Shown piece after piece: positions 9,801 to 63,540 of a stretch of 64,000 nucleotides of DNA. Within the stretch, counting starts at the first letter, position 1. Every line of letters begins with the position of its first letter. Both the position numbers and the translations under genes were made by a program. A model generated the notes under the pieces. The model worked only from the letters and a program-made list of their open reading frames with translations. It made no database searches and was not told the DNA's origin. The DNA comes from Geosiphon pyriformis uo1 (lineage: Eukaryota; Fungi; Glomeromycota), in assembly GCA_016748015.1 (NCBI GenBank), contig JAAOMT010000226.1:287250-351249 (forward strand), written 5' to 3'.

Positions 9801-10732
9801 TATTATTCATAAAAAAAGTACAAAAAAAAAAGTAGAAAAAACAAATAAAAAAATAGTACTTAGTAAGTAAATATAATATTAAAAAATTATAATACATTGC
9901 TTAACAATATGCATATTGTTAGTGAATTATAACACATTACTCAACAATAAGCATATTGTCAGAAAATCATGTCATATTGCTTAGTAATACGCATATTGTT
10001 AAAAAAATAAAACACATTGCTCAAAAAAATATGTAATCTTATATAGCAAGAATTATGTATATATCAAGAATATTAAAAACAGAAAAAACAGAATTAATAC
10101 TAATAATTAGTTAGAACTTATTAATTAACCAATATCTCTTCCTTCAAAAAGTAGTTTTTTACAACTTGAAATAGAATCAAATCATATATTAATAAAATAT
10201 TGATTAATACCTGAATTCATGTTATTATTATTTAATTAAAAAATATTAATTACTTCTATTTTATTAACACTTCATGTTGATAGAATCCAACATTTAATTA
10301 TACTGGACCAATAACTTTTGATTATGGCTATTAACAAAATATTAATTTTTTATTTTCTTTTCTTATTTTCTTTTTATTTTTTTTTATTTTTTTTATTTTT
10401 TTTTATTTTATTTGTTGTTTACTAATTGATTAAAAAGATTAAGCACTAAGTATTTTATATCAAGAATAGTCTAATAAAAAACCCAGAAATAAGAATAGAA
10501 ATTTAAAAATAGCTTATTAGAAAAGCATAACTGCCAAAATAAACTAGCTACTATACTAAAAAAGAAGATTTATAAAAGAAACCATTAATTGAATTTCTGT
10601 TTATTATACAAAAAACTCAACCAAAATTTTCAGATTCTAAAAATCATTAGAAATTACCAATATTATTAACTATTGAGCACCAAGTTACAGATTTGTTATT
10701 TGTTCTAACATTTTAAATAAACATTTATAACA
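9801..10732 (+). repeat. Element A 5' LTR
   Basis: Direct repeat of 49369-50291; ends TATAACA followed by PBS-like TTTAATGTTCTTAGTGAG. Confidence 0.9.
9891..10025 (+). promoter_or_regulatory. U3 array of 40-bp tandem repeats (~3.4 copies) in LTR A
   Basis: Units start at 9891, 9931, 9971 and 10011, each with an ATTGCTnAGCAAT-like palindrome; a TATA-like TATATAT follows near 10058; mirrored at ~49475-49610. Confidence 0.7.
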
Positions 10733-13700
10733 TTTAATGTTCTTAGTGAGATATAATTTAACAGAAAACCAACACCAATATCAACCATTTAAAAAAGTGA
10801 CAGACCAAGAAATTATAAGAGAAAACCATTTAAAATTTGTGAAATCTTTATTTTAACATTAATAAATTTAATTTAAATTAACAAGTAATTATTGGTTAAC
10901 AGAATCAGCTTTTAATTACTATGTTAACAAAAAAATTAAATTCTACTTAGAAGACCAAAAAAATCCAGAAGTTATTCTTAACAATTTCTATAGTGAATTA
11001 TTTCAAAACACTACACTTCTACTAAACCATTTGTTTCCATTACTAATTACAGAAATAAACAAAAAAATTGAAAATTACACTTAACAGAAATTTTTTGTTA
11101 CTTTCACAGATAAAAAAAATTTATAAACTTTAGCAGAAACACCAAAAAAATTACAACTACCAAATTGAAAAAAACCAAGAGTCATTTTACCTATTCATTT
11201 ATAATACCATCATATATCCAGAAGTATTATATACATACTCTTAGAATCTGTATCATCATCAACTATGAAAACATTATTACTTAGAGTACTATTCTAAAAT
11301 TATCAAGAGAAAGCCAAATTATTAAAAACTTATAATAATTACTTTAAAGAATTTAAATTGTGATTAACAATACTATTAAGACTTCAATTACTGTTATCTT
11401 AACCAGATTTCGAATCTATCAGTTATTGGGAAGATACTAATTCAGAAGAAAAAAAAGACAATGATCAAAAAAACAATAATCAAGACCTAATCTCAAATAA
11501 CTCAAAAATACAAACTTTGATTATTTAAACTCCACAAAACTTGAACAATTCAAACCTCATTTTTATTATTTAGTAAGACTTACCTTTAGTAATTGTGATC
11601 AATTCACCAGTTGTATTAATTGTATCACCATAACAACAATCTCAACCATAATCACAACAAGAATTACTAGCACCAATAGCATATGTATCTATTGTCAAAC
11701 TCGAGAAATTCATTAACAAAAAAGACAATGTCCAAATATAATTAAATAATATTACCAAAACAATTACAATTAATAACTGAGATAACATTAAAGCTTTTTA
11801 AGCCATTTTTTACTTCTTACAAAATACTGCTAACTTATTATATTAAAACTTAATCAACAAGTTACAAACCTTTAACACATTTAAAACTGTGTTTCTGTAA
11901 TAGTTTAGCAATCACAACAGCATCAATTATCTGTTAACTAGTTTTACTATTATTAAACAGAGTAATACAAAAGCAATCACTACTTACTTAGAAAACTTCC
12001 ACAAGAATCTATGCCAAATTCAGACAATCTAAGTTAACTACTTTACAAAAACACAAATTTTAAATTAGTTTATTTGTAAATTATACAGCAGCTTATTACA
12101 ATGAGTACATTTAATGCACTTAAATACTCTTTAAAATGCAGTAACTTATGCCAGAAATTTTGAATTGGCCAAATTCAAAGCCAATTATATCCAAGCTGTT
12201 AACTTAGTGATAAATGGATCATTTGAATTGAATACCAAATTGAAGCAATTTGGTAAAATTATTAATCAAAAAATCAAGAAATATTTCGTTAATAATCAAG
12301 CCATCTATTAGTCTTTTCAATACTATAACAATTAAAAAAACTCAAATTATTTCCAGAATTAATTGTGCCTATCATTTTCATCAACCAATTAATTATGACA
12401 GTAAGAAACACATATCTGTTATTATTATAATAAATAAAAACACTTAATATTAAACTACTATACAAGATTAAATAATTAATAATCAGAAAATCAATATTAA
12501 AACTCCAATCAATGATTTTAAACTCTAAATTACATCCAAAATCAGAAATTATATCAATTTTATTACACTTCAATAATACAACAACCAATATACTTATCTC
12601 TATTATATCAAATTCCAGCACCATTTATTTATTAGCCACAGCCACAAATTATTTTTCAACCCTAACCAATTCAAACACTACTTTAAAACATAGTTCAAAT
12701 ATTAATTAGCAATCAAAGACTGAAAATTACTTACATACAACAGAATTAGAGATCAGCAATAGTAATATACTAATCAATTTCTAGTTTATTAAATCAGTCA
12801 TAAAGATCACACCAGTAAAGTTTAAGAAGTAAGTATACTCAAAATTTAAATTTCCAAAACTATTTAAGTTTTTTAGTCACCTCAAAAACCAACTTATCCA
12901 ATAATTTGAAAAGCCTAAAAACACTAATTATCAGTAATATTCTACTAGCAATTATTATTGAAAACAAATCACTTGTAGCTTTATTTCTCTTTAAAATAAA
13001 AGAATCAACAATACCACTTTTATTTATTAAAGCCATTTTTAATACCAAATCAATCACTGCTATATATACTAACACTAAAGTTAATGGTTATCTTATTAAG
13101 CTAATTTTTGATAATAGTTTAGTAAACAGCATCATTATATGACAACTTATAGACTAATTAAGTTGTTGAGTTGATTATACTGCCAATACCAGAATAATTT
13201 TAGCCAATAAAACAACAAAAACTTCTATTGGCAAAATTGATGACTTTCTATTTAAAGTCAATGTATTATAATACCTATTAAGATTTTTGTGATAAAAGTT
13301 ACACAGTACTAAGCTCTTATTGGTAATAATTAGCTATTTAAGACTAATGCCATACTTGACTAGATTATGCAAGAGCTATAGCTCAGTTAAAATGGTCAGC
13401 AAATTTAGATACCAGCTACTTACAGATACTTTAAAGCTCTTTCAAGAAAACAATCATTGATTAAGTTGAAAGAAAAAAAAAACCTACTTGAGAAGTCTAT
13501 TAAGTCTTATAGACTAAGAATAAACACAATAAATTATTGTTAATATTCACTTGAAACAATAAAAGAAAAAAGAAAGAAGGAAATGAACCAGAAGTCATTA
13601 CAGTTACTAAAAAAATAACCAGTAACTAGAACTGATCATATTTTATAGACACCAAAAAAAAACTGTTGTATATTTTACTTAAATACATCGACTGTAACAA

Positions 13701-16700
13701 AGAGCTTTCTTTTATAAAAGCTTGGATTTTACCAGATAAAAACTACTAGACACATATTTATTACTATTGCAAGCCATATTATAGAGAATACTTTGATTAC
13801 CCTAAATAACAAAAAAGTAAAACAACAAATCATGTCTTGTTTGTAAAAAAATATTACTTAATAAAAAAATGTGGAATAACATTCCTGATTAAAGAAAAAT
13901 ATATAACACATTGTGTTAATACAAAATTGTTATTAGTAACTGAATAAGTCAAGAAACTTTTTTTAATGCCACATAAAACCAAGCATTCTTATGCTTGAAT
14001 AATTATCTATATAACAAAAATGAAATCTGGCAAATAACAAGTACTAAAATTGAAGACACTTCATTCAATAAGATATTCATGATCAAAAATAACCCATCAA
14101 AATTTGTTGAAACCATTCTTATTCCTAATTTAGATATTTTTATTAATATTTTAAGCAACTAAAACAATTTCATAAACATTATTAAAACTTAGCATTCACT
14201 AGAAAAAACAAGAGCAGTGTTTAGAACAATTAAATGCTAAATTCTGTAAATATTGCCTAATTTTTAGTGACTTCAAATATTGTAATAATTGTGATCTTAT
14301 CTATAATCCACTATTATACATGACTTATTTAATCTCCAAAAAAAAGAAACCAATTAGTGAATGTGCATTGAAATTGGAATTAAAATTTAATTACAATTCA
14401 GATTCTAACAATGATAACAATAATAATTCTAACTTTATCTATAATGGCAATAATAACAATAATGATTCAAATTTCAATTACAATCTCAAATAATATATTG
14501 TGCTTTCAGATTTGTCAATAGAGCAGAAACTAAAATGGTTTAGTAATAATAATAAAAGTATTATGTCAGAATGCACATATAATACCAATGCAGAATTTGA
14601 TTTCAGGTATCTAAAAAAAACTGCCATTAGATTGAAACCTTATTTATACACTAGTATAGATCTGAAAATAGCACTGAAAATTTTAACAACAACAATAGTT
14701 CAACTAGTCTCTAGATCTAATTTAGTGAAAAAAAGAATTAATATTAGAGAAAAAATAATTGATACAAGATATATAAAAAATATTATTGCAATGCTATAAA
14801 ACAACTCAAAATAAAATATGTAATTAAACTAAATAAAAAAATACCACAAGCAATATTTTTACCTCTAATTAAAATAGCTTAGTTAATATCAGAAGAAACA
14901 AAAAAAATGTTAAGGATTACAACAAAAAAGATAAAAGAATTCAAATTAATGAATAAAATAGATATATTAGTTAATATAGTAAAAAAAAACAATTAATAAG
15001 AAAAAAATTATTTTTATCTATTAATCAATTTCTATTTTACTATATAATTAGTATATAGTAGTTATAGAAAGGAAGATAAAAAACCAACCCCAAATTTTTG
15101 AAGTTAAAACAAACATTTATAAATTAAAAGAGATTGTTATTACCAATCTTTACATATTAGCCAAAAACCACAAACATATTAAAATTCCAATATACAACAT
15201 AATTAAAGACCTTATAGAAATACTAAATAGAACTACCATTAAATACTTAAACATTGCAGTTGAAAATCACTTACCAATTATTATTTCAGACTTTTTACAA
15301 CTTTGTGAATATGTAAATATCATATTACAAACTATATACAGATAAAAAAAATATTATTTGTTATAATTAGAACAATTAAAGCAAATAAACTTAAGAAATC
15401 TAGATTCACTTTAACAAATACAACTTAAAATGTTACTTAACAGCTTTACTAATATTTTTGTTAGTAAAAATGAATTTGGCAGAACTAATATTATTTAATA
15501 CCAGATCAAAACTGGAAATGTAATGTCAATTAAACAAAAAACATACAGAATACCACTAACCAGCTATAAAATCATCTAACAAAAAATCAACCAAATATTA
15601 AACAATAAATTAATTCAATTATTAATAAGCCCATAGTTATTACCAATAATATTTGTTCATAAGAAGAATAAAAAAATCCACTTTTGTGTAGATTACAGAA
15701 AACTGAACAGTATTATTTATAGAAACAGTTATTTAATTTTATAGATTTAAGAATTATTTAATATTATAGATAAACTAAGTAGGATATGGTGATAATATTT
15801 GGTGCTTAAGATTTGGGTTTTTAGGGAGCTTTTGATAGTTTTTTTTTAATAAACTTGTTTGGTGTATTAATGTTATTAATTTCTAAAAGTCTTCTTAATT
15901 GATATGAATTTACTCATAGAGTTTTTTAGTTATAAGGCACAGAAAGATGTTTTGTAGTGTTGTAACTTCTTGTATGTGAATGTGAGCTATTTTTTCTAAG
16001 CTAATAAGCACAGTTATTAAGGTTTGGCAGTGTTTTTTAACTCTTCTAATAAGCTACCAAAATAATATTAATATTCGAAAAAGCTTCTCTCTTTTACTAG
16101 GCTATTACGAAGTCTATTTCCAAACAGTCAATTTTTCTATGTTGCTGTTCTACTAAAGAGAATAAAAAAAAGAAAAGAAAATAAATAAAAATAAATAAAA
16201 ATAAAAAGAAAATAAGAAATTAATATCTTGTTAATAGCTGTGATCAAAAGCTATTGTTCCAAGGTAGTTAAGTATTAAATTTTATTAACATAAAATGTTA
16301 ATAATAATGACAGTGATTAATATTATTAATTAAGTAATAATAACATGAGTTTGAAGATAATAGATAATTTTATTGATAAGAAAATGATTTCACTTTAAGT
16401 TATAGAAAAATATCTTTTGAAAGAAAAGTATTGTTTTAAATTAATATAAATTCTATTGAATTCTCCAGGAATTTTTTTCTGGCTGTCTTTTTAACTTCTA
16501 CAACTATTTATTTTTATATATTTTTTTTGTTTTACAAAATTGCTTTTTAATTGTTTTATTTTTGCTAGTTATTGTTTTATTATTTTTGTTATTGCTTTAT
16601 TCTTTTATGTTATTACTAGTTATTCTATGTTTTAATTAAATATTTCATGCTATAACATGTTATTAAGTTTTGTATTATGTTATTCTGAGTTATTACACAT

Positions 16701-17810
16701 TATTCTGTGTTTTTTTATATTATCTTGTGTTATTATGTTTTTGATTATGTTTTTTTATAATTTGAATTTGTTTTTTTACTTGGATAACATTGATGTTTTT
16801 AAAAAAAAAAAATGGCTTTTAATATTAAACTTAGATAGTAGTTATTGACAAATAGCCATAAATTTAGCTGACAAAAAAAACAGTATTTACTATTAGAAAA
16901 AGAAACTTTGAATTTGATGTTATGTTATTTAACTTAACCAATATTCCAGCTATCTTCCAATGGCTTATAAAAATCATATATACTGGATTACTATGAAAAT
17001 CAGTAATAGTCTACTTGAACAACACCAATGTGTTCTTCAAAACATTTGATAACCATTTTCATTATTTTTAACAAGTGTTTGAAAAATTAAGAAGAGTTGA
17101 ATTGAAATTAAATGCAACTAAATGCTTTTTTGACAAAACTAAACTTAAGTTTTTGGAATATATTGTAAGCAAAAACAGCATAAAAACAGATTCAGACAAA
17201 ATTGAAATAGTCAAAAACTTTTTGGTACCAACAAATTTTACAGAATTAAGAGTATTCTTGAGATTTGCTGAATATTATTATCATTTTATTCAAAATTTTT
17301 CCAAATTGGCTCAACTATTTCACCAGTTCTAAGCAAAAAATATCAAATATAAATAAACAAAAACTTAACAAGAAGCTTTTGACATCTTAAAAAGAAAGCT
17401 TATTTAAGCACCAGTATTAATCTATTAATATTACAACAAGCCATTTATTATTACTATTAATGCATCTAGTCAAGCATTGAAGACTGTATTGTCACAAAAA
17501 AAAGCAGATAGACGAAAACATCTAGTGTTATATGTTAGCAAAAGTTTAAGTCCAGCCAAAAAGAACTATAAAACCTCAGCATTAAAATACTTAGCTATAT
17601 ATTAGACTGTTATTAAATAGAAAAAATACTTAAGTCAAAAGTTTGATGTTTATACTAATCACAAAAAATTGACATTAATCCAGAAACAAAAATTTGGAGA
17701 TAATTGTCATACAAGATAGAAAATAGAGTTATTACTATTTAATTATACTGTACATTATAAAAAAGAAAAAAAATAGAAATGTCAACAGTTTGTTATAAAT
17801 AAGAAAATTA
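10733..17810 (+). pseudogene. gag-pol: Element A polyprotein relic (N-extension-Gag-PR-Cys-rich-dUTPase-RT-RNase H), split by solo LTR E
   Basis: PR relic LIFDNSLVNS (~13100), dUTPase relic ORF 14500-14799, RT YLNN (from YLDD) ~17012, RT/RH relics 17075-17800; very many stops. Confidence 0.85.
15762..16789 (-). mobile_element. Solo LTR E (A/B-related family) inserted antisense in the RT of element A
   Basis: Minus-strand termini TGTTATCC...TATAATA; flanks TTAA (15758-61) and TTGA (16790-93) fit a mutated 4-bp TSD (probably TCGA); removing it restores E-L-F-D-(A)-F-(G-G)-K-K-W as in B; shares the GGAACAATAGCTTTTGATCACAGCTATT block with A/B LTRs. Confidence 0.85.
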
Positions 17811-19074: not shown

Positions 19075-19972
19075 TGTTACTTATAGAACATAAAAAGTAT
19101 ATTAGCATATAAATTAGCCAATCAGAAGTAGCCATAGTAAAATGTGAAATTCCAGGATTTCTTTCAAAAGAAATTGCAGAATTCCAGGAATTTCAGAATT
19201 CTCGTACAAAAGAATCACAAGATTCTAAAATTTCAGAATTCCACTAAAAAAAAATTGCAGGATTCCAGGAATTCCAAAATTTCTGGTGTGAAAAATTGAG
19301 GAATTGAGGAATCTCAATTATGTATATATAGCAGTAGTGCTAAAAGTAAAAAAGGCAGAATTCTTTAGTTAGAGACCTCTCAGTTTAGATTTGATCTAAG
19401 CAACCTTCCAATATTACAAATATCAATAAATAATTATTTACTATCTCCAATTTCACTCTTCACTATCAACACTTTATGTTGATAACAAGTAATACTTAAC
19501 TACACTAGAACAATAGCTCTTGATCACAGCTATTAATGGGATACTAACTTACAAATTGTCTTGGCTTATTTTCTTTATTTTTTTTTATTTTTTTTATTTT
19601 TTCTATTTCATTTCTGTGATTTTATTGTTGTGTACTAATTGATTGAAAGAGAATAACATGTGGAATACTGATGTCAAAGTGACTGGTAAAAGATCCAAGA
19701 ATAAGGGTAGAACATTCAATTAAGGATAGCTTATCAAGAGGAATACCAATTATCACACTGAAAAAAAAATTGACAAAACTATGGTTTTGGAAAGCTACAG
19801 ATAAACACTATTGAATCTCTGTCCATTATACAAAAAACTCAATTAAAATCTTTAGATAATAATACTTTTAGATACAAACAACCTTTAGATAAAATCATCA
19901 ACCAAAACATCCACCAAACACCAAGTTATGGGTTTGTTATTTCATTTGAGACCCCAAATCACACCTGTAACA
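19075..19972 (+). repeat. Element B 5' LTR
   Basis: Direct repeat of 47615-48505; U3 array of GAATTCCAGGAATTCC-like units ~19145-19315; TATATATA ~19323. Confidence 0.95.
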
Positions 19973-23277: not shown

Positions 23278-24248
23278 TGTTACCAGTAGAATTTTAGCTA
23301 GTAATTAGCATAAAATTATCCTTATAATCCCTATAATTAATTAGTATATTAATATTATTTCAAATTATCATTTATTATTTAATCAATTATTACATATTAT
23401 GATTTAATTAAAATAATCTAATTAGTATAACAAAAAGTAGAATGATCAAATTACACAATACTCTGAACTTTGTAACATTCTAAAATTCATCGAAATTTAC
23501 AAAAATTCGCCGAAATTTATAAGAAATTTGCCGAAATTATGAATAGTTCACTCAAATTAATCAATAGTTCAGCGAAATAACTTGTAGTTCATCAAAATTT
23601 GAGCAAAAAGAAAAAGTGCAAGTTTATAGACTAGTATTACAACAAGTTGTATAAAAAAAGAGCTTTTTTCTTCAAGAAAATGTATCTTACTTTAGATTTA
23701 TTACTTAGAACCATTCCTACATACACAAAGAGAAATAAATATCAAATAATTTGAAAAACCAAATTTTTTAATTATTGCACTTGGAAAATCCCCAAAACCC
23801 AATTAACATTTTGAAATTGATTAGCTACCAATTTCAGTAAACTGTTAGTGACTCCAGACCTGGATAGAAAACGTTTCTCTTGATAAAATCCTATTTCTTT
23901 TACCTTTCTTTTATTTTTCTTTTCTTTTCTTATTACAATCATTAGAGTAGCCTACAGACAAGATTCCTGTAGAAGAGTTGACTTTCACAGCAAAATAACT
24001 ACACATTTTTAGTGAGCTTTCAGATGAGCAATTCTTGGAAAAGAGTTGACATTTACTACAATGTAACTACATAAAATAACTGGCAAGAAATTGGCCATTT
24101 CATTTATAAGCCCAGCAGTTTAAATTATAAGAGATAATTTGAAGATAAATTCAGTTATTGGAGGTTCAACTACTTCTAAAAAACGTGAATTTACAACCAA
24201 CAGATAGTTACAACATTCAAGAAAAGAGACCAAAAACCTCCAGTAATA
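23278..24248 (+). repeat. Element C 5' LTR
   Basis: Direct repeat of 32189-33157; ~20-bp TTCGCCGAA-type repeats ~23480-23600; TATAAAA ~23650. Confidence 0.95.
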
Positions 24249-44349: not shown

Positions 44350-45069
44350 ATGACTATTTCTCAAAATATTCAATAAATATCTCAAAAATTAATGCTAGCT
44401 TTAAAAACAATACTCGAATTATCTATCACTATTACAGAAAAACATATTAATTATACCCAAACAAAAATAGTTACCAATTTAGTCCCAAATTCACGAAAAT
44501 ATCACCCATATAAGAAGAATGCAAGAATTTATTCTGGAATTCACCTGCCAGAACTTTTAAAGCTTGCTTTAAGAGAAAACTTAATGCTCACTTCTATTAG
44601 TATTTCACCAAATGCTACTATTCAACAAAAACTTTAACTGTATCTTAACGAAAAAAACTACAACTATACTCCAATATATAGATATTTCTACATTGGAAAA
44701 ACACTTTACGAATGAAAATGAGAGCTTACAGCAGCAAATCTCACAAAAGAAGCTATTCAAAAACAACTCCACAATGAATTCAAAACAACAGCTAGATTTA
44801 CAAACAGTTATTATAAACTAAGAACTACTCTTAAACTTTATGACCTATTTCACATCTGTGAAAACGTCCTACAAAACCCAATTTTACAATCTTTGAAGAT
44901 TCAATACATTGGAAAGCTTATAGAACTGAAATTTCAACAATTTTCAGACCAAATTTCTTCAATAATTTTAGATTATTATCTGGAAATTACAGACAGTACT
45001 TGGACTTTAATGGAGCTTAGTCTTGAGGAAGAGGTTATGTTACCAGACAAAATTAGAGATATTATTTAG
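44350..45069 (+). pseudogene. Element D ORF3 (~239 aa), overlapping the PPT and start of the 3' LTR
   Basis: MTISQNIQ*ISQKLMLALK...YFYIGKTLYE...KLYDLF...IGKLIELKFQQF...LEEEVMLPDKIRDII*; collinear with ORF3 of C. Confidence 0.85.
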
Positions 45070-49368: not shown

Positions 49369-50291
49369 AATTATTCATAAAAAAAGTACAAGAAAAAAAA
49401 ATAGAAAAAATAGATAAAAAAATAGATCAATAAGAGAATAGTACTTAGCAAATGAGCATAATATCAAAAAATTATAACATATTACTCAACAATATGCACA
49501 TTGTCAATGAATTATAGTACACTGTTCAGCAATAAATACATAGTCAGAAAATCATGGCACATTGTTTAGCAATAAGCATATTGTCAAAGAAAATAAAGTA
49601 TATTGTTCAAAAAAATATAAGATCTTATATAACAAAAATTATGTATATATAGTGAGAATATTAGAAACAGAAAAAACAAAATTAATACCAACAATTAGTT
49701 AGAACTTATTAATTAACCAATATTTTTTTCTTTAAAAAATAGTTTTTTATAATTTAAAATAAAATCAAATTACATATTAATAAAATATTAATTATTATCT
49801 AAATCTATGTTATCATCACTTAATTAAGAAATATTAATTACTTCTATTCTATTAACACTTAACCACACTGGAACAATAGTTTTTAATTATAGTTATTAAT
49901 AGAATTTTTAATTTTTTTTTCTTATTTTCTTTTTATTTTTTTTTATTTTTTTTATTTTTTTTTATTTTGTTTGTTGTTTATTAATTGATTAAAGGAATTA
50001 AGTACTGAGTATTTGATGTTAAATATAATCTGATAAAAATTCCAGAAATAAAGATAGAAATTTAAAAATAGTTTATTAGAAAAACATAACTATTAAAATA
50101 AACTGGTTATTACACTAAAGAAAAAAATTCATAGAAAAAATTATTAATTAAATCTCTGTTTATTATACAAAAAACTTAACCAAAACTTTCAGACTCCAAA
50201 AATTTTCAGAAATTACCAATATTACTAACTATTGAGCATTAAGTTATAGATTTGTTATTTGTTTCAATATCTTAAATAAGCACTTGTAATA
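49369..50291 (+). repeat. Element A 3' LTR
   Basis: Direct repeat of 9801-10732; ends TGTAATA followed by TSD ACAG. Confidence 0.9.
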
Positions 50292-50699
50292 ACAGCTAAA
50301 AAATTAATATCCAAAACAAAATTTTCTTTTAATTTTCTTAATTATTTTAAAAACAAACAACCAATTTTAAAACAAAAAAAAATAAAGTAAAAAAAATTTT
50401 TTTTTGTTTTTATTATTAATATTAAATTTTTTATTAATATTAAATTTTTTATTAATTATTATAAATTTTTTAACACATATTTTATATTTGTTTTTATGTT
50501 TTTATTTTATTTACTATTTAATATAATATAACAAATTAAAAATTTAAAACTAGATATAAATAAAATATTTATAATATATAACCAGTCATTTAAATTAATT
50601 AAAACTATATTATTATTTAAACCAAAAAAAAAAACAAATATAATATATGTAAATTAAAACTTATAATATATACTTTAATAAAACTAAGTAAATATATTA

Positions 50700-52880
50700 T
50701 TATTTTTATTATATTTTATAAGTAAAATTCAAATATTATCTAATATAATACATCAAACTAAGTAATTTAAACTAAATATAAATTATGTATTTTTTTATAT
50801 AAGATTAATCACTTGGATTAATTAAAACAATATTATATATTTATACAGAAACTAATTTTTTAATACTTAAGAAAAAAAAATATATTTATATATACTAAAA
50901 CTAATTTTGAATGCTTTAATAATTTTAAGCAGCATAATTATACTACTAGATAACACAAACAAAAAATTATTAACAATAACAAGTCTAATCTTATTATATA
51001 AAATTAAATCTTTTTTTTATAAAAATTTAAAATAAACAAGCCAAATATTTAGCTTATATATTAATTCTAAATTATGCACAAAATTTACAAATTTTTTATT
51101 AGTAGTTTTAGTATTCTTAAAAACAAATAAAAACTTATAAAGCTAATTTTTAAAAACAAAATTTTTATATAAAGCAATATATATAATAATATTAAATAAA
51201 CATAAAAAAAGCAGTTAAAACACACATAATAATAATCTGTATAAATTAAATTCAGTTTTTAAATAGTTATATATATTTTAAATATGTTTTTATATGTTTC
51301 AACATTTATTTTACATAAAAAAAGTGGTTTAAAAATTCAATTTTATTATATTAAAAATACAAAGTATAATAATAATATTTATTATACAAATATTTACAGA
51401 TAACTATAAACAATTGATAATACAAGATTTTCATAAAATAAAAATATGTATTAATTATAACTTTGCTTATAAAACCAGTTGTTTTATAAAAATTAGATTC
51501 AATCAATATTTCTAATTAAATTAATATTTAAAATCTTAACAACAGACTTAATTTTTTAATAAATACAATAAACTACTTAAAAAATTTTATGAATAAAATA
51601 TTTTGAATTTTTTATTATAACCAAATAATTAATTATAATAAACTTTTTTCAAACATAGATCAAAAATACTGTATTTAAAAATAAAACAGTACTAACCAAA
51701 AAATTAGTTTTTTTATTGTTTAAAATACCAAAATAACTTTTAACTTTATATTAATTAATATATAGATTTTTTTTTAATAATATTTAAAATATGCTGTCAT
51801 TTAATTTAATAATAATTATAAAAGTTTAACAAAACTAATACCAATTTTAAAGAACATATATTCAAAACTATTTAGCTGTTAAAAAATATTTTAATTATAT
51901 AAAAAATAAAAATACATTATAATACTAATATAATAATCTGTAATTTAGCTATTATAAAAAAAATCAAACCAATTACTTTGATATTTATACTTAAATTCAG
52001 ATTTTTAAAAAATACTATAATACTAGTTTTCATATTAGTAATATTCAAATTGCTTAAAAAACCACCAATATAAATAAACAAATAAATTATATAAATATCA
52101 AGCAACTAATTACAAATCAAACTAAATTCAACCAAATTTAATATATTTAAAAACTGAAAATTAATAGTTAAAAATAAGTCAATATTATAAAAAATTAAAC
52201 TGTTTAAAAACTTAGTTGCCAAAATAAACTACTTAAAAATTAAGTCTTGAGAGTTTAATTTTTTTTAATATATAAAAGTTTTCTAGCTAAAAACATTTTT
52301 ATTTTTGTTATGTAATTGTTTAATAAAAACAATATTAAACTATTTAAGTAAATAAAACATTTTTAAAAAAGTTAAGTTATCTAAAACTATTAACATTAGA
52401 GTTTTACTTAAAAATCAAAATACAGAACACAAAAAGTTAACCAAAAACAAATTACAACCATGAAAAATTTTAATCATATTAATCAAAAAATTGTTAATAA
52501 AGTTGATATTAAAACAAACCAAAAAACATGTAAAAAAAAACCCAATTTAAAATTTGAAAATTCAAAGATCTATAATTAAACAGTTAGTTCAAAATATTAT
52601 TAATATTAAAAAAATTCAATAATAAAGTCAATTTGTATTTAATTTGTATCTGTTTAAAAAATTTTAAGCTATGTAAAAAAAGTAATAGATTATATTACTT
52701 AAAAAATCTAAAAACAAACTAGATTTTAATTTTAAATTCTTTCAAATCAAAGTATTTTATTTATTGTACATACTAATTAAAATAAAGTTCAACTAAGTCC
52801 TATAACTAATGATAAAATATAAAATTACTAAAACAAAATAAAAAAATTATTTATTTAAAATAAATTTTCTTAATATTATA
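50700..52880 (-). mobile_element. 5'-truncated LINE fragment (post-RT region, RNase H, C-terminus, 3' UTR)
   Basis: ORF 51917-52105 LFIYIGGFLSNL...IAKLQIIILVL parallels the RNase H relic of the + strand LINE (~58705-58860); the reverse complement of 50700-50990 aligns with 59830-60120. Confidence 0.75.
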
Positions 52881-53514
52881 TATTATATTATCAAATAAAA
52901 TAATAACAAATTATAAATTAACAAATAAATAAAGCTATTTTTATTAATTAAATTATATTTAAATAAATTAATTTTTATTTAAATTTATATAATTATATTT
53001 TATTATAAAAATTAATAAATAAAGTATATATAAAATTAATTAGTTTTAATATACAAATATAATATTATCAAAAATAATTTGTTTTTTATATTAATTTTTA
53101 AAAACAAATTTTTGCTTAATATTATATATAAAGAGTTATTAAAAACTCTAAATAATACTACTTAAAAAACTAAAAAAAATACAATATAATAATTAAATGA
53201 AAAAATTTTTATATTTATTTAAGTATTAAATAATTTAATTAAATATTTATATTATTAATATACAAAATACATAATTTGAAAATTTGATCTTATTATAGTA
53301 AATATATAAAACATTAAATAAAATTTGTTGTATAATTTTTTTTAATTATTATTAACAACTTTTTATAAATTGTTTTTATTATATATTTACTTATAAAATC
53401 TATTATATGTAAATTAAAATAAAAAATTTTTTCTTTTGTTAATCTTTTGGCCATAATAAAAGCATAAAATTATCGAAAAAATAGCTTTTCTTTCCTTCTT
53501 TTTTTTTTGTTATA

Positions 53515-55409
53515 ATAGAACTAATAAACTTTTTTGCTAGTAATTTTGATTTAAATTCGGCTGGTTTAAAAACCTGCTTAAATACTAATAAAAAACATAT
53601 AGAAAATGTCTATTTTTGTAATATATATTACAAAAAACCAAAAAAATTTGTTATAAATATTGGTATAGTTAACTTGTCTACTGGCTTTTTAAGACTTAAA
53701 AATATTAGTAAGTCTGGTAAAAAGTCTGTAGTATTTTTGAAAAGCAAAATTAGCAGTGAAACTAGTAATATTAGTAATCTGTTAAATATAGAAAATATAA
53801 AAAACATAATTGCTAAAGAAACTAGTTATGTAGATTTAAATACTTTAGTAGTTAACAATAATATAAATAATATAATACTATAAAAAACTTATATTTAAAC
53901 ATATATATTAGATGATCTACCAAAAACTTTTTTATTTATGGATTTAAGCAATGACAAAAATGATTTAATGCTTCCATTATCTAAGTTTAATGACTTTAAA
54001 CAATTTTTATTGGTCAAATTATGTGTCTTGAAAAAATAGAGTTTTAATTTGGCAAAATTTTTTGTGTTAGATATTAAGTTTTCTGTTGTGCTTAAAAAAA
54101 CTTTTGGTAATAAATTATTAAATATAAAAAAAATTTATTATTATGTTGATAGTTTTGAGAAAATATTAACTTTTTCAAAATTTTTAGGTATTATTAAATC
54201 ATTTTTTATATTTGAATTAAACTTAAATAAAACTAAAAAATTGGCTATTTGTAAAAAAATCTTGGTCAATAATAATATTAGAAAAATAAACAATTATATG
54301 AATTAAGAAGTAATTGTTAAGAAAATTTTAGTCAATTTTTCTAAATTGGTTGTAAAATTAGTTTTTTTAAAATTTAAAAAAATTATGTCTATCAAAATAC
54401 AGCTTATTGGTCTTTGACAAAAAATCTTAGTGAAATTAAAATTATTAAAAATTGCTGATTTGGTTGTTTTTAAATAGTGTGTATTTATGAAAAAAATTTT
54501 TGTTTGTATGACTAAAATAATGAATAACAAACAAACATGAGTGTTTAAAAATTTTTATTAGATTTTGTTATATACTTTGCCAGTTAATACTATTGCTCAT
54601 AATTTTTCTAATTTGTTGAAATTATATGATAAAAAAACTTGCTCTATTGGTCACAATCCAAATTTATATATGTATAACAAATTTTTTGTAGTTTGTTTTA
54701 TTGATAAGACATTAAAAAAGCTGTTATTGGTTTTACCTTAGTTTTTAAGAATATTAATTTGTATTAGACTGGTCTTTTTTTGTCTGTTGTGCTTAGTCTA
54801 AACAATTTGGTTATGTTTTTAATGTGTATTTAGTAGATAAAAATTTAAGTGATTACAGTAAACAAATAATTAATTTTCAGAATCAGATTTGTTTAATAAA
54901 TATATATATAAAAAACAAGCACCAATTGCTTGTCCAATTTTATTTGGTAAAAAGATTTATGCTCAAATTGTTAATAGTTTTATTTTTTATGTGATGTCTT
55001 TGGTTTTTTTTGGTGCTAGTTTATTTTTGAATACTAAACTTTTTTTGTTGATTTTTTTGAAAATAAATAATAAGTTTGCTGCTTTTGAATGCAGTCTTAT
55101 TAACTTTGCAAAGCAAGTCAACAAGCTGGCTAAAAGAATAAATATACTTGAACTAATAGTTTTTTAGCTTAGTCCTAAATATTAATTATTAATAATCTCT
55201 TTATTACAAATTAAGAGACAGATATAGTAATAAGTAAAAATTTAAGTACAGTTATTAATAGTAAAACTATTGCAAAAACAGTATTTTTAAATTTGCCAAT
55301 AGTTTCTAAGTTAAAAAACAATATAATAAGTCTTTTTAATATAGTCATAAATTTTTTAGCCAAAGTGAACAATTTTAGTTTAAGTTTAAGATCTTATCTA
55401 TCTAAATAA
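53515..55409 (+). pseudogene. LINE ORF1 relic (RRM-like and Zn-knuckle-like regions)
   Basis: EVIVKKILVN...VFLKFKKIMSIKIQLIGL*QKILVKL (~54307-54440), LLYTLPV, Cys relic ~54785. Confidence 0.65.
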
Positions 55410-58400
55410 TTAATTTAGTCTAAAAAATTGCTATGTACAATATTAGAGATATCAATGTTTTTACTAAGTAGAAAAATATTGTTTATTGATATATTAATTC
55501 AAATAATATGATTTTTATTATTATAAAAACTAAATTAAAATTTAATATTAAGCCTTTAAATCATAAATAAGTTCAAAACAATACAAATTTTTACATCTGA
55601 TTTGAACAAAAGTTTTCTTAATATTGAAATAATTATTGCTATGAACAATTTTTTGGCTTGTTATGTCTTAAAAGTTTAAACAAAATTATTTTAATTTGTC
55701 TTCTATTTGAAAATAAACTTTTAGTAAAAATTTTAAAATTGTATCCTGGTGTTTTTGCTAACATTAAATTTGAGCAAACATTAAAAATTAATTTTTTTAT
55801 TGTTAAAGCAGTTAATTTTAATACTTTTGTGGTCTTGGGTAGAAATTTTAATAAAAATAAATCCAAAAAAAGTGCAAATTTCAAGTTTTGTTTAAATTTG
55901 AATTTGGTCAATGTATTTAATAAATATTTATTAATTAAAACTTCTATTTGATGCAATTTTAGAGGTGTTAAAAAGATGTTAAATTTTATATTTGTGAACA
56001 AAAATCTGGTATCTGCAGTTGCAAATCATAAAATTAATATAAATTATAAAACAGTTATATTTAGTTAATTTGGATGATTTTTTAAATATTTATCTTAATA
56101 GCATTTGTAAGCAAGCCAATAAAAATTAATAGAAATATAAAATAAAAATTGTAGATAAAAATAAGTAGATGTAATTTAAAGAACACTCTTTTACTAAGTT
56201 ATTAGCAATGTTAAGTATGTTTAAAAAAACAGAGAATTATAATGATTTAGATATAATATAAAAAATGTTAATAAAAGCTATAGTATAATTTGCTAATATG
56301 GTGTTTTTTAGAAATAATATAACAAATATAATTGTTTAAAAACAAGCAGTTATCAAGATTTTTTAAATTAAAATTGCTTGTTGTTAAAATTATAAAGAAA
56401 TAAAATTCTGAAAATCTGTTAAAATTTGAGTATCTTATCAAAGTTTGGTTGATTATTAATAGTATTAAGGCATTTAAGATAACCAGCATGATTCAAAATG
56501 ATATAAAATTAATAAATATTATTAAATATTTGTTAATAATTAAGAAAAAATAGCAAAATTTAAGTATTATAAATTAAAAGCATCTAAAAATTCAATTATT
56601 AAGAAAATAATTAAATAATATATGGAAAATTTCTGTTTTAACAAGAAGTGAATAATAAAAAATATTTTGAAATAGTCTTTTTACAAAGTTATTTTAGATT
56701 ATTTGGTGGTTAAAAATAAATTGGTAGTAAAATCTAATGAAATAAAGCTTAAAGTTAATGAAATTATGCTTTTGAACTATGTAGATAATGGTATTTTTTT
56801 TAATGTAATGAAAATAATTAATATGGAAAAGTTAGTTTTGGTAATTGATAGTTTGTCAAGTGATAAGACTGTTAAATTATCAGAAATTTCAAATAAACTA
56901 TAGAAACATTGTGATAATAAAGTGTTAAAATACTTTTTGAAGTTGTTGAATTTGTGTTTAATTTTGGATATGGCTCTAGTTTCTTGGAAGAGAGTATAGA
57001 TTTCAATAATTCCCAAATCTTATAAATAGAATAGTGTTTTAAAAAATATTTGGTTTATTGTATTGATTAAAACAGCTAAAAAAATTTTGTTTAAGATTTT
57101 TTTGATTAAATATTTTTAATATGTAGCAAATTCAATGTTTTTTGTAATAATAACTTTTTAGTATTAAAAGATACTTTAACTTAATATCTTATTTTTGTCA
57201 TTAAACCAGTTGTTAAAGATGTATTAAAAAAAAATAGAGAGCTTTAGTTGATTTTACAGAATATGTACTAGACATATAATTTAATAAAGTAGTATTATTT
57301 AAAGACTAGTTTGCTATATATCAAAATATATAATTAATTTATTGAGTTTTTTGGCAATATATATAAAGATTAAATTAATAGAATAATGACTAATTTTAAA
57401 CTCTCAGATAATTATAATATACATAATAGATTAAATTAAAATAAGATTTTTTTTCTTTTTTTTGAAAAATTTTTTATGATCCACTTTTGTGTAAAGTTAA
57501 AAGACATAAATACTTGTATAAATACTGAATTGATACTAAGCTTGTGGTTAAAACTAGCAAAATTGAAACTATTAAAAGAAAAACTTCATTTTTTACTGCT
57601 AGTGTTTTTGTTAATAACACAATTTGAATCAAAAGTAGCCAAGCTTTTACACAATATATTTTGAATATTGCTAATAAGTTTTTTAATGTCAATAACATTT
57701 CAATTAATAATAAAAAGACAGTAGCTATTTTTATCAACTAAGATATTAAGATTGTCTTATTAATAATTAGTGATTTGTCAATTTTAATTGCTAAAAAAAG
57801 TAAATTGCACAGATATTTAAGTATTTTTTTGTTAACTAAAAATTTTTTTAAGCTTAGTATAGTCCAAGCTTATGTAGATGTCAAATTTTTTTTAATATAG
57901 TATTAAGAAAAGTAATTATAAACAAACAGTTTTTTTATTTAATATTGACTGTTTTGTAATTTATAGTTAACTATTAATTACAGTTTAGTTTTGTTTTATT
58001 AAGTATGTATTGTAAATAAAATATAATAATTAGAAAAAGTCTTAAGACTAAAACTAATTTGCCATAAGGCTTTTTTAATAAAGTTCTGTATTATTCATTT
58101 TTATATGATCTAAAGCTTTTTAAACAAGTATAGTCAAAAGAAAAAATGGATTATTAGTTGTCTTTTTTAATATAATAAGCATTTTTGAGCACTTGTTTAA
58201 ACATAAATTCTTGGATTTGCAAGTTTTGAGGTAGTCTTTTTCAAATTTTTTGCAGTTTTCTGTCAAGTTATATGTTAGTCTAATAAACAATTTTTTGGCT
58301 GGAGTAATAAAAATATTTTTGAACAATAATTTATCTTTTGGTAAACAATTTGCTCAATATATTTTATGGTTTTGGCAAATTTTCAATGTTAAACATTTTG

Positions 58401-59990
58401 AGAAAATTCTTGTATTATAGCTTTGTTTTTTCTTTAAAGTGATTTGGAATTGTATTTATTAACAGGCTTCTAAACAAAAAAGATAATATGATAAGCTAGA
58501 AAATATTTTGCTAATAAAAAAACTGAATACAAAGAGCTTTGTGTCTTATTGATTCAAGCTAATATTTAAATTTTTGAGCATTAAGAGTTCTTTAATAATT
58601 AATTCTGCAAATGTTAATAGATTACTTGGGTTAAATGTTTTAAAATCTAAAGAGTTTTTTAATATGTCAGAAAGCTTGCTTGAGATTTGATTAGATTTTA
58701 TTGAAATCTATACAGATGAATTTTTAAAATACACTGGTTCTGTTAAAATCATTAGTAAAACAGTTACTTACTTTCCAGTTGTAAGTATGAATATTGGTAT
58801 TAGAGTACATAAGCTTTTGTTTTTTATAATAGCCAAATTATAAACTGTTGCTCTGTTTTTGGAATATGTTTTGTTTTTTTATGTAGTAGTTTTATATCTA
58901 AATAGTTAAGCTGTTATTAATATATATATATTTGAGGTTTTATTTGCTGTGCTAAACTTTTGTAATTAGTATTAGATAGAAAGAAAACATAGTGTTAATT
59001 TAATTAAAAATAAGAATCTTTTTATTAAAGAGTAAAAATTAAAAGTCATTCAAATATTTTAGACAATGTTAAAATTAATGTAATAACAAATAAGACCATA
59101 TATTTTTCTTTTTTTTGCCAATTAAAATTTGAAAATAGTTTATGATGGTTAAAAAAATAGCTGTATTTAGCAATACTTATTATTTTGTTCATAATTTGTA
59201 CAAGTCTATTTATTATACTCAATAAAAAACTGGCTCTAATTATAATATGATTCTAAGTATATTAATTAGAAAAGTGGATTGACTAACTATTGTAAAAGTC
59301 TGGCATCTTGATTTGCATATGTTTTTTGAATTTACTAATAAAAAATTTGTTAATTAGTATATATACTTAATAAAAGCTGTACATAGAAAACTATTAATAA
59401 TAGTTAGAAAAAAGTTATATAACAAGATATATCTTAATATACTATATTTACTGTATAATAAAATAGAGTTATCTGACCATGTTTTTACTTGTGTTAAGAA
59501 TAATAATATTTAGAAAAAAATTTTGGTAAAAGTTTTTGAACAATAAATTTTATTGGTAAATACTTGCTGTTTGTTTTTTTCTGCTGTCTTATATATATTA
59601 TCTTAATATTTGTCAAATATAGGTTTATATGTAGTAATTTGCAAAAAATTTATGCTAAGAAACTGATATACAAAAACTTGTATAGTTTTTAATAAAAAAA
59701 TAAAAACTGCTTCTACTATTGTTAAATATGTAGAAATTCTGGTAAAATTGCATTATATTAAAATATAACTTGTAAGATCTAAGCATAGAATAAATATAAA
59801 AAAAGTTAGGTTAATTAGAAATAGTAATTTGATTTTAAATTTGTCTTATAGTATAATATTTATGTTATTAAATATGATAATTTAGTTGCTTAGTATAGTG
59901 AAATTTTTTGTGGTTAATTTTGGTAAATACAAACTGTGCTCTTTTTTTTTTGGTTTAAGTAAAAATATATATATTAATATAGATATTTAG
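55406..59990 (+). pseudogene. LINE ORF2 relic
   Basis: APE: KIAMYNIRDIN (from ATxNVRG) and VVLGRNFN (from GGDFN); RT: SIIPKS, LQNMY*TYN (from QDxxKAYD), FVNN (from FVDD) at 57607-18; RNase H: IYTDEFL ~58708; HVFTC ~59478. Confidence 0.8.
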
Positions 59991-60125
59991 TGTTGTTTTA
60001 TTTGGTTTGAGTAATTGATCATATATAATAAAAACATAAATTGTATTTAATTTAAGCCATTTAGTTTAATTCTATATATTAAATAACAATTGAATTTCAG
60101 TCATAAAATGTTAATAAAAAAAATT

Positions 60126-63100
60126 TTTTAATATTATATTATTTTAAAACTGAAATAGTAAATAAAAAAGTAAAAAATATAATTCTATTAATAAATTTGT
60201 TAAAATATATATTTTAATATTATATTTAATATATATTATTTTTTAAGCTAATATTAATTGTAAAAATTAAAAAATATTAATTTAATTCCAAAAATCTAAA
60301 TATTTAAATACACAATTATTTTGTTAAATAATAAAATATATTCTAAGATTAAAATAATTGTTTAAAATTGAGCCAATATAAAAAAACCTAACTTATATAT
60401 TTTAATTTTTAATCTTAAATTTAAGTTTATAAAATATTTATAATATCATTAATAATAATAAAAAATCCCAAATTTTTTAAAAAATTATATGTAAAAATAT
60501 TTATTACTTTTAAATTTACTTTACAAAAACTATTATATATAACAATAAAGTTATTTAATTTGTATATATTATTTAAAAAAATATAAAATTACTTAAAATT
60601 AATATATTAAAAATATTTACTATTAATAAAATTAATTACTGAATTAAATATTAAAATATTAAATTCTTTAAATTTTTTTTTTAATAATAAAGAATTTTTT
60701 AATCAAAACAACAATTGTATTTGTTAACAAATAATTAATATATATTATCTTAAATTATATTAATAAAACTATTATTTTATAATAAAATTTTTTTTTAAGA
60801 TTTTAAATATAAAAATACTATTAATAAACTATATATTAGACAAATTGTTTTTAAAAAAAATATTATATTTTAAGAAAATTTTAGTCATACCAACTAAAAA
60901 ATTATTTATAGAACTAATATCTAATTTTATAAAAAACTAAACCAAAATTTTTAAATTTAAATAACAATACTTAAATAATCTATTAAAAAATACATTAATA
61001 TTACTTTTTTTTTGCTTAAATTTAATTAAAAAATTTAAAACCATAAAGTAATCAATAAAATTAATTTATAATTTATAATTAATTATAAATTAGAAAACAA
61101 TTAAAATCAAATATAAAAACTGTTTATTTAAAATTTTTTTAATATTATATTGACAAAAAATTTAATATTAAAGTATATTTTAATTATGTTAAATTTGAAC
61201 AAATTATTTATTAACAAATAAATATTTTTTTTATAATAAAAATTAACAAATTACTAATTAGCAAAAAGACTTCTTTAACTTTCTAATTAATAAAAAAAGT
61301 TATTGTTTATTAATATTTATTAAAATATTATTAATCATAAAAAATTTATTGTAATATTTAAAATATATCAAAAAATAATTTGATTATTCTCAATTTATAT
61401 TAATAAATATTTTAATTATTAAGTATAAAATTTATTTTATAATTACATAAATGGTTATGTTTTTTTATTTTACACAAAAATAATAATAGAAAATATTTTA
61501 AAAAATAAGAAAAAAACTTTATTTTGATCTATATTATTATTTATTACATAACTATTAATTAAAATAAAATCTGTTATTATTTTGTTTACATAATTATTGT
61601 AAATTTTTTGATAAATTTTTACATATCTTAATCTTAATTATTTACAAATAATATTAACCAATTAAAATATAGATTTTTACATATTATAAAATTAATCAAA
61701 ACTACTAATTTTTTCTAATACTTTTTTTTATTAATAATCAATTGTAAAAATCAAAAATTAAGTTAAAATGCTTTTCAAAACTGAAAAAATATTTATTCAA
61801 AAAACATTAAATTGCTATAAACAGTTAAAATATAATTAGATAAAATCTTAAAAAAAAATTTCTGATAGTATTAATTAAGATAATTAGACAAATATTTATT
61901 AAAATATTTTTTTATTAAGCTTAAAAATTATAAATATTCAGATTTTTTTTAAGATTTGAAAACTAAAAAATTATTTAACAAAAATTCATAAAATTTAAGA
62001 ATAATTTCAATATAAATTTATGATAATATTTTTAAAGTTTATTAAAAATATTAAATAAACTAGTAGTTTTGTTATTTGGCAAATTTTTAACTATATTAAA
62101 GCTTATTTAAATGTATTTTTTTGCTTTTAAAGTGTTTTTTTAAAAGTTAAAAACAGTTTTAATTTTATTGTTTGTTTTATAATTATTAATAATTATTAAA
62201 GAGCTTTTTATTTCTGTTTAAACTGCTTAGTAAAAATATTATTTAAAAAGATTATTAAAGTTAATTTAATTTATTTTTAAATTTTATATTACCAATTATA
62301 TTTTTTCGTTTTTGTATAAAAACACTATTAATAAAATTATAAGTTATCTTTTTTACTAGGTTTTTATTATTATAATATTATTAATAGTAATTGTTAAGTT
62401 TAATAAATATAACAAAAAAACAACAAATCAAAAAGAAAATATTTTTACAAGTTAAATTATTTTAATTTTATTATACTTTTATTATTTATTAAAAATCTTC
62501 AGAAAAATTAAAAATTTCACAATATAAAAATAAATTAAAACCAATAAATATTACTTGTTTTAGCTAGGATAATTAAAAAAAATTAATTTAAAAAACTTAG
62601 ATTTACTTTAATAAATTCAAGTAAAAATTTTAATTATATTAATATTTTTATTAATAAAAATTGGTTTAAAAAAACTAATATTAAATTAATATTAAATTAA
62701 TTAGAAATATAAAGCAAAAAATTGATCAAGTTTTATTTATTAATCATAAAATTATTTAAAAAAAGATATAATATATATTAAATAATAAAATAATTTAATT
62801 ATTTATAAACTTCTAATTATTATTTATTGTTTTAGTACAAAAAAATGAAAAACTCTGCTTTTGTGTAAACTATTAGAAGCTTAATAATATTATACATAAT
62901 AATAATTATTTAACTTTTATTATATAAAAAATACTATAATAATTAGTAATTATATATTTAAATAATATCAATATATTTTTTAATATATTTAATAAACATT
63001 TGTATTATTTACAACAAGCTTTTAAATAACTATAATTAGTTAAATTAAAACTTAATGTTAATAAATGCTTTTTTAAAAAAACAGAATTCAAGTTTTTAAA

Positions 63101-63540
63101 ACATATTATTCAAAAAAAAATTAAACTAAATTCAAAAAAAGTGATTAAATTAAAATTTTTTTAACATTCATCAATTTTACAGAATTAAAAAATTTTTTAA
63201 ACTGCTTGAATATTATTAAAAATTTGTTGAAACTTTTTGAATATTTTATAAATACTTTATTAACTATTAACAAAAAATATTAAATATAAATAAATTAAAA
63301 AACAATAAAAAACTAGTTGATTATTTAAAACATTAATTATAATCATAAACTTTTTATTTAAGTTTAAATAAATAAAAATTAAAAGTTTAATAAATTAATG
63401 TATTAAAACCTGTAATTGAAGCTATTTTATTACAATTTAAATTAAATTATTAAGAGTATTTAATAATATATTTTAACTAAAGTTTAAGTTTATTAAAAAA
63501 ATTATAAAATCACAAAAATAAAATGCTTAACTTTAGCATT
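60126..63540. other. Extremely AT-rich eroded sequence, probably an unrecognisable TE remnant
   Basis: Almost no CpG and very few G/C; no ORF of 60 aa or more in the track. Confidence 0.5.

Follow-up and report, generated by a model that had tools for sequence, protein, structure and literature searches.

Two-strand C:G to T:A ruin of repeats, leaving AT-rich relics with nonsense and missense damage, has been described under the name repeat-induced point mutation (RIP) for Neurospora and other Pezizomycotina (PMC4352252, PMC12543289; here and below, papers are cited for the portions of them that were consulted). In basidiomycetes and Tuber, CpG (TpCpG) decay in methylated transposons leads to near-total CpG loss (PMC4352252), and the Dim2 mutator of Zymoseptoria tritici produces more than 90% transitions in repeats, mostly non-CpG C>T and confined to the repeats, a pattern consistent with accumulation without meiosis (PMC8016269). 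Here we analyze a stretch of 64 kb from Geosiphon pyriformis, a member of the arbuscular mycorrhizal lineage (hereafter the window, meaning the whole 64,000 nucleotides), in which four nested Ty3/Gypsy retrotransposons, elements A to D, and several older relics have lost cytosines. An original prediction, made from the letters of this stretch, had proposed a RIP-like, repeat-targeted and broad-context cytosine mutation process that would be notable outside Dikarya, and the host is indeed a glomeromycotinan (Archaeosporales) and not an ascomycete. The process shares with RIP the two-strand damage, with TpCpG decay the near-total CpG loss (observed/expected ratio (o/e) 0-0.2 in the old elements) and a 5'-T preference that recalls the TpCpG context, and with the Zymoseptoria mutator the non-CpG, repeat-associated transitions. 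It differs from RIP in that CpA is not the target, the RIP indices are negative, hits are neither clustered nor coordinated by strand, and large families of repeats persist; from TpCpG decay in that 89% of the transitions lie outside CpG and non-CpG C>T runs at about 49 times the transversion clock; and from the Zymoseptoria mutator, where more than 98% of the changes fall at CpA while CpG and CpT are spared (PMC8016269), in that cytosines change whatever their 3' neighbor, most of all at CpG, and the bias depends on the 5' base. The outcome resembles that of a slow RIP that fails RIP's tested hallmarks, and the process is likely a variant of methylation-linked repeat decay.

The anatomy of the window was obtained by self-alignment and reading of the boundaries. 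All four elements carry long terminal repeats (LTRs) and are flanked by 4-bp target-site duplications (TSDs), and the TSD of B itself carries one C/T transition:

9801-50291, plus strand: element A, the oldest Ty3/Gypsy copy; LTRs 9801-10730 and 49370-50291; TSD ACAG/ACAG.
19075-48505, plus strand: element B, inside A; LTRs 19075-19972 and 47615-48505; TSD ATAT/ACAT.
23278-33157, plus strand: element C, Ty3/Gypsy, inside B; LTRs 23278-24248 and 32189-33157; TSD ACAA/ACAA.
36453-46019, plus strand: element D, inside B and of C's family; LTRs 36453-37164 and 45038-46019; TSD CCAG/CCAG.

The Pfam order of protease, dUTPase, reverse transcriptase (RT), RNase H and integrase identifies them as Ty3/Gypsy elements; the Pfam matches in A are to RT-RNaseH and the integrase zinc-finger. 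The two LTRs of one element are identical at insertion, and the differences between them are therefore post-insertion mutations. Transitions outnumber transversions by 126 to 11 in the LTR pair of A (900 columns), 115 to 5 in B (893), 50 to 4 in C (946) and 48 to 2 in D (712), which sums to 339 against 22. The ratio of 11.5-24 is homogeneous over the four pairs (chi-square p=0.53), and non-RIP families of transposable elements show 1.2-1.7 (PMC4352252). Both strands are affected (C/T 181, A/G 158), and within every element the load is similar in the 5' and the 3' LTR (A 67/59, B 62/53, C 22/28, D 23/25). As had been noticed from the letters, the changes reach well beyond CpG: 330 of the 339 transitions have clean neighbors, and only 36 of these lie at CpG. 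Left out of this spectrum were the element-to-element internal comparisons, in which selected divergence between active lineages lowers the transition/transversion ratio to 1.9-4.6, and the pairs of the oldest relics, where the ratio comes near 1, as expected when few cytosines are left.

The direction of change was read from 122,740 contigs of sequencing run X1 aligned over 23279-43278, where a place was taken as polarized if at least 75% of the sister-copy depth differs from the window, some differences remaining uncounted. Among 500 polarized places, 410 are C>T or G>A in the window (226 and 184, respectively), 54 go the other way and 36 are transversions. The per-site rates of 0.0595 for C>T, 0.0041 for T>C and 0.0018 for transversions mean that, site for site, C>T after insertion proceeds at about 15 times the rate of T>C and about 33 times that of any transversion; they imply an equilibrium near 6.5% GC, and the oldest relics stand at 10-12% GC. 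Run X1, which may be the source sample, holds contigs identical to the window over 756-910 bases with 0 differences, and as such contigs exist and the effect is locus-specific, an assembly or amplification artifact is unlikely. The same direction was seen in a set of 120 Geosiphon paralogue proteins (285 columns and 21,357 residues, after removal of 15 columns in which no residue reached a 60% majority and of those with fewer than 30 sequences): 1548 deviations can be explained only by C>T/G>A, 176 only by the reverse and 279 only by a transversion, with 323 ambiguous and 146 multi-step. E>K was found 354 times and K>E twice, and the mean per-site rates are 0.091 for C>T, 0.007 for T>C and 0.001-0.004 for each transversion class. 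The best 120 of 145 matches to the dUTPase-pol open reading frame (ORF) at 40031-40951 are all G. pyriformis paralogues, with 51-84% identity.

The sequence context of the changes was scored in the LTRs and on 1353 paralogue sites; some of the latter are homologous between C and D, and either element taken alone yields the same order. CpG is the hottest context of the LTRs (36 of 53 sites differ, 0.68), followed by CC (0.37), CT (0.32) and CA (0.28), and the 5' base orders the sites as TC 0.40, CC 0.31, GC 0.27 and AC 0.23. Outside CpG, 185 of 495 LTR sites with a 5' pyrimidine differ against 109 of 452 others (p=1e-5), an effect that is clear in B and D, absent in C and saturated in A. The paralogues give TC 0.138, CC 0.110, AC 0.065, GC 0.060 and CpG 0.207, the last only about twice the non-CpG rate at the scored sites; compared with A or G, a preceding T or C about doubles the rate at non-CpG cytosines, the 3' base makes little difference (CA 0.097, CC 0.113, CT 0.083), and TC ranks first on either strand, in copies with light as in those with heavy loads. 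Element bodies have a CpG o/e of 0-0.25, and the relics, with almost no CpG, a TpC o/e of 0.58-0.75 and a GpC o/e of 1.8-2.9, carry the residue expected from the order TC>CC>AC=GC. The dinucleotide spectrum and RIP-type indices had been proposed as checks, and on the second the RIP label did not hold: neither the LTRs nor the paralogue proteins show a CpA or CpA/CpT preference, and with thresholds of >1.15 for the product index and <0.75 for the substrate index, 0 of 127 1-kb windows are positive, because CpA is not favored. The composite RIP index exceeds 0 in 28 of the 127, all in A or the relics.

As a 5' pyrimidine about doubles the rate, sunlight damage has to be weighed, in which slow repair would let C>T changes at dipyrimidines remain, and Geosiphon is a soil-surface dweller with a photosynthetic partner. 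Ultraviolet (UV) light leaves an excess of CC>TT tandems and spares non-dipyrimidine cytosines, but CC>TT tandems in the LTRs are as frequent in the same copy (15) as distributed over opposite copies (15), the non-dipyrimidine contexts ACA (0.047) and GCA (0.062) are hit, and a 3' T gives no rise. UV as the sole cause is therefore rejected; we consider the explanation highly improbable, and UV a contributor at most.

Whether the excess belongs to the repeats was judged against a control within the window, 3 kb away from them:

5720-6662, minus strand: low-copy pseudogene used as internal control, overlapping the gene model G9A89_012514; CpG o/e about 0.5.

The ORF at 6074-6412 on the minus strand is 100% identical to G9A89_012514 over 93% of the ORF length, and 5720-6662 aligns at 90% to a metagenome locus (L001). 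With Entrophospora and Ambispora proteins as outgroups over 207 codons, 24 of 25 amino-acid differences fall on the window's lineage, two of them stops (base changes at the protein level: 12 C>T-type, 3 reverse, 10 transversions). The lineage-specific changes and the two stops point to a decaying pseudogene, which can serve as a near-neutral control. At the DNA level, its 943 aligned columns contain 31 C>T and 12 T>C changes beside 24 transversions, and the C>T count per transversion is 3.8 as compared to 33 in the elements (Fisher p=1e-10), or outside CpG 3.1 as compared to 48.7 in the LTRs (p=8e-13). Relative to transversions, the C>T excess is thus 9- to 16-fold weaker in the control than in the repeats. 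With 2.55% transversions, most of them on the window's lineage, and 9.7% cytosine loss, against 0.61% per copy and 40% in the LTRs of A, the control has four times A's transversion load per lineage and a quarter of its cytosine loss. Given this ordinary control spectrum, the C>T excess of the repeats is repeat-associated, a conclusion that rests on one control. The step from about 0.11 to 0.34 GC at 63545 is a second hint in this direction. Decay of CpG methylation alone would account for the CpG depletion, but it predicts non-CpG changes near background, and these are far above it (48.7 vs 3.1).

A match of the spectrum to that of neutral DNA had been named in the original prediction as a refutation, and the difference from this local near-neutral control (Fisher p ~1e-10 to 1e-12) speaks against it. 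A related idea is that the whole genome has a C>T-biased neutral spectrum, for example after the loss of repair or translesion functions, which becomes visible in repeats as they are unconstrained. It fits that the flank at 1-3800 is also AT-rich and CpG-poor (GC 0.22, CpG o/e 0.29), that the control itself is biased 31:12, and that all Glomeromycotina lack Rev1, which might lower transversions (bioRxiv 2025.09.02.673565); but Pol zeta is kept in Geosiphon (bioRxiv 2025.09.02.673565), the control combines many transversions with little cytosine loss, and GC steps abruptly within 100 bases at 63545. We therefore regard a genome-wide spectrum as very unlikely. The claim that single-copy exons keep their CpGs stood in part: the DNA at 5.7-6.7 kb is much less hit, but it is a pseudogene with two stops in which 9 of 41 cytosines at CpG sites are changed, and its single-copy status was not borne out, as related contigs pile up there. 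The summed contig depth, which is no copy number, is 2,000-3,000 for the control, 55,000-474,000 for the elements and 63-106 for unique contigs.

The tempo of the process was examined in those paralogues that offered 80 or more scored sites (119 of the 120); their C>T loads range from 3% to 19% per copy. No excess of strand bias was found among the 119 (chi2/df 0.85; 1.12 in the least-hit third), neighboring hits lie on the same strand in 1683 of 3191 cases against 1675 expected, and 1149 hits lie within 30 nt of each other against 1210 expected. In the LTRs, 7 of 8 strand-run tests were null.

RIP is burst-like, and clustered or strand-coordinated within a copy. True RIP could still be considered in the form of a RID/Masc1-dependent, homology-triggered process of relaxed context, whose weak action through numerous cryptic sexual or parasexual cycles would blur the single bursts. 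Such a process would be compatible with the dominance of C:G>T:A in repeats and the weak effect on a low-copy neighbor, with tandem duplications at 8789-8975 and 9261-9685 that show 19:1 and 34:7 transitions to transversions, and with the statement that arbuscular mycorrhizal fungi (AMF) keep RID (PMC8298701). Set against this are the absent CpA preference with its 0 of 127 index-positive windows, the lack of strand bias even in the least-mutated third of the copies, the accumulation of hundreds to thousands of copies, and a survey that found Masc1/RID in Dikarya only (PMC5751038), and we judge true RIP quite unlikely. The two tandem duplications adjoin the 5' LTR of A, and the process may spread to flanks or hit small duplications.

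The same counts bear on deamination of unmethylated cytosines in repeats, either by a TC-preferring cytidine deaminase or through uracil that is poorly repaired in heterochromatin, CpG methylation adding only the CpG peak. APOBEC3-type enzymes prefer 5'-TC/CC and leave one-strand G>A clusters during reverse transcription. The order TC>CC>RC resembles this preference, although only about twofold, and a CpG rate merely about twice the non-CpG rate would suit deamination without methylation. Strand-coordinated clusters are, however, absent among the paralogues, and even AC and GC sites change at about 0.06, over 10 times the rate of any class of transversion; we consider this explanation unlikely. 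Editing of the complementary DNA (cDNA) as the sole cause is rejected, as both strands are hit, clusters are absent, and the differences arose between the two LTRs after insertion.

The age series of the elements agrees with gradual loss. The estimated cytosine loss per copy is 0.40 in A, 0.23 in B, 0.12 in D and 0.10 in C, climbing with the transversions per copy from 0.14-0.21% (C, D) to 0.61% (A), and GC falls from 0.33-0.34 in the internal regions of C and D to 0.19-0.24 in A and 0.10-0.19 in the relics. Erosion that increases from C/D over B and A to the outer relics, as described, was thus seen, and it drives the relics toward 6-10% GC. Its interpretation as grading by nesting depth was only half right: the gradient is real, but nothing beyond age was found in it, since inner elements must be younger. 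The transition/transversion ratio is equal in all four pairs, and the most eroded relics lie outside A. The series C/D < B < A reflects age, and nesting merely orders it.

Within 437 in-frame pol codons aligned across the four elements, A has 18 stops, B 9, C 8 and D 2, most of them at positions that encode Gln, Trp or Arg in some other copy. YLDD, the intact RT motif, is present in C (29103) and D (41984), and YLNN takes its place in B (35123) and A (17012), as the original prediction had stated, and also in a relic at 62955. A and B share C>T-type changes above chance (33 vs 19.6 of 138, p=1e-6), and their common YLNN might have been inherited from an already damaged element mobilized in trans. 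First positions of Asp codons are hot, however, with 8 of 9 hit in A and 5 of 9 in B, and 4 of B's 9 stops are shared, near A's general rate, so that independent hits may suffice for the shared YLNN.

We favor, with moderate confidence, that the C>T changes in the repeats reflect gradual deamination of cytosines methylated in all contexts. Repeats would be packed into heterochromatin, their CpG sites methylated by a DNMT1/DNMT5-type enzyme and their non-CpG sites by a DIM-2-type enzyme that prefers 5'-YC (Y, pyrimidine). The 5-methylcytosines (5mC) would then deaminate, spontaneously or enzyme-aided, during vegetative growth, and the changes would become fixed without selection, one site at a time. 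Such a route would require neither meiosis nor repeat pairing, and its outcome would be RIP-like, namely the irreversible ruin of transposon reading frames. In Rhizophagus irregularis, 32.5-49.5% of cytosines are methylated by liquid chromatography-mass spectrometry (PMC8298701), and nanopore-detected methylated CG sites correspond to 13.8% of cytosines (PMC8647823), which may leave room for non-CG methylation. AMF are stated to keep DNMT1, DNMT5, DIM-2 and RID (PMC8298701, citing another study), transposable elements of Phycomyces are methylated at CG and CHH with DIM2 present (PMC11258239), and in Zymoseptoria, mitotic C>T within repeats is increased over 10-fold by Dim2, at CpA (PMC8016269). 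That Geosiphon, perhaps the Archaeosporales, has a dedicated, enzyme-driven deamination of repeats with a 5'-YC signature and without meiosis, an analogue of RIP outside Dikarya unseen by the dinucleotide indices, is a rather doubtful extension.

Several points weigh against methylation-linked deamination as we propose it. The proposed methylation and deamination steps are modeled on relatives of Geosiphon, no 5'-YC preference of DIM-2 was found in the literature drawn on, and the Zymoseptoria mutator is CpA-specific (PMC8016269). The repeat specificity depends on one 943-base control of uncertain copy number, since related contigs pile up, and this control is itself somewhat C>T-biased (31:12), its cytosine loss of 9.7% matching the loss in C and D, the young elements. 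As the paralogue copies are related to one another, the events counted in them are not independent. When LTR differences were polarized by a single sister pair, only 48 C>T against 20 T>C were counted, with 29 of 101 differing sites having no usable outgroup state, and private changes in a four-way comparison (down/up: A 60/20, B 19/42, C 22/38, D 15/42) are directional for A only; we attribute the counts in B, C and D to lineage substitutions and parallel hits, which is unproved. Finally, one of the eight LTR strand-run tests reached nominal significance (p=0.011).

The right-hand part of the window consists of the relics and ends in DNA of a different kind:

50300-53400, minus strand: second relic, related to the 57.9-59.3 kb part of the following one; GC 0.12, zero CpG.
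53500-59900, plus strand: heavily eroded RT-bearing relic; GC 0.19, 1 CpG in 6.4 kb, FVNN near 57610.
60000-62400, minus strand: third relic of the same kind, with matches at 61054-61916; GC 0.10.
62543-63540, plus strand: Ty3/Gypsy RT relic with YLNN at 62955; GC 0.11; abrupt end against CpG-rich DNA at about 63545.
63545-64000, strand not assigned: gene-like DNA with retained CpG, at the end of the window; GC 0.34, 10 CpG in 456 bases.

The relics at 50.3-53.4, 53.5-59.9 and 60-62.4 kb are mutually related, and a Pfam scan gave no domain in those at 50.3-59.9 kb or 62.4-63.5 kb. An RVT_1 protein of Geosiphon (P0103) can be aligned with 56.6-57.7 kb, and the two main high-scoring segment pairs between this protein and the 53.5-59.9 kb relic contain 87 C>T/G>A-type residue changes against 15 of the reverse type. 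The FVNN reported for the relic at 57.6 kb is present; by its domain order we take this relic to be LINE-like (LINE, long interspersed nuclear element), a label that is unconfirmed. The GC step at 63545 goes from 0.09-0.13 to 0.33-0.36; the DNA beyond it, with possible introns and no Pfam match, marks the edge of the eroded zone.

LTR elements with a dUTPase have been described in fungi, and the elements of the window share with Ty3/Gypsy elements of this kind the LTRs, the 4-bp TSD and the gag-protease-dUTPase-RT-RNaseH-integrase order; those of the window are the substrate and not the finding. The dUTPase lies between protease and RT (C 27584-28300, D 40031-40954, B 33447-33965), and no link between its presence and the C>T process was shown. 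The 5' LTR of D (36453-37164) lacks about 270 bases found in its 3' LTR, and the LTR pair of C differs by two reciprocal 21-base indels within a tandem-repeat tract. An insertion of about 1.1 kb at 15708-16792 splits the RT of A and contains a further fragment, which was found by self-alignment and differs from the 5' LTR of A by 40 transitions and 17 transversions:

16155-16446, minus strand: inverted A/B-type LTR fragment inside the insertion that breaks A's pol.

On the left side, 4299-4595 contains a weak DDE_3 (Tc1/mariner-type) transposase remnant (E=0.004, under the curated cut-off) in a region with a CpG o/e of 0.66, and a 168-codon ORF at 7393-7899 without Pfam match keeps some CpGs, related contigs lacking 114 bases at 7395-7508. 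The control pseudogene belongs to a Mucoromycota family without Pfam domain; its relatives from Entrophospora, Ambispora and soil metagenome (P0002, P0124 and L001) are mutually close across distant orders, P0002 and P0124 having a nearly identical N-terminal stretch, and spread by horizontal transfer or with a mobile element is possible. For the RT-RNaseH protein, a scan of metagenomes gave 181 candidate stretches, with no relative among them.

The Geosiphon genome has 129 Mb, 64% repeats and 29% GC (PMC9453076), with 41% LTR elements in a paper that never uses the term RIP (PMC11952901). A kingdom-wide screen reported RIP-like signatures only in Ascomycota and scored Gigaspora margarita as 'no_rip' (Badet and Croll 2025; PMC12543289), the portion of its genome table that was searched containing neither Geosiphon nor Ambispora, and, according to another study, no RIP signatures have been detected in Gigaspora or the Mucoromycotina (PMC8647823). 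An index-based signal, with caveats, has been given for the entomophthoralean Zoophthora (PMC11105155), so that ours is not the first such claim outside Dikarya. Our literature search, which did not cover the Geosiphon genome paper itself, found no report of the signature in Geosiphon or AMF, and the consulted portions of PMC13297926, PMC12344493, PMC7862722 and bioRxiv 10.64898/2026.01.14.699541 added nothing on Geosiphon. A directional, broad-context, two-strand C>T process outside Dikarya, far stronger in the high-copy repeats than in a low-copy neighbor, is what stands of the original prediction, and the strict sense of RIP-like is what had to be given up.

In summary, the decay of repeats in this glomeromycotinan is as strong as RIP and yet index-negative, and index-based negatives may therefore be blind spots. 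The signature predicts that Geosiphon has non-CG 5mC in the order TC>CC>AC=GC. It would account for the low identity, only 51-84%, among the expanded Gypsy 'genes' of Geosiphon, and dates of transposon bursts that are derived from LTRs in these fungi would be biased by it. Should a component that is strand-coordinated or RID-dependent come to light, it would have implications for cryptic sex in the lineage.

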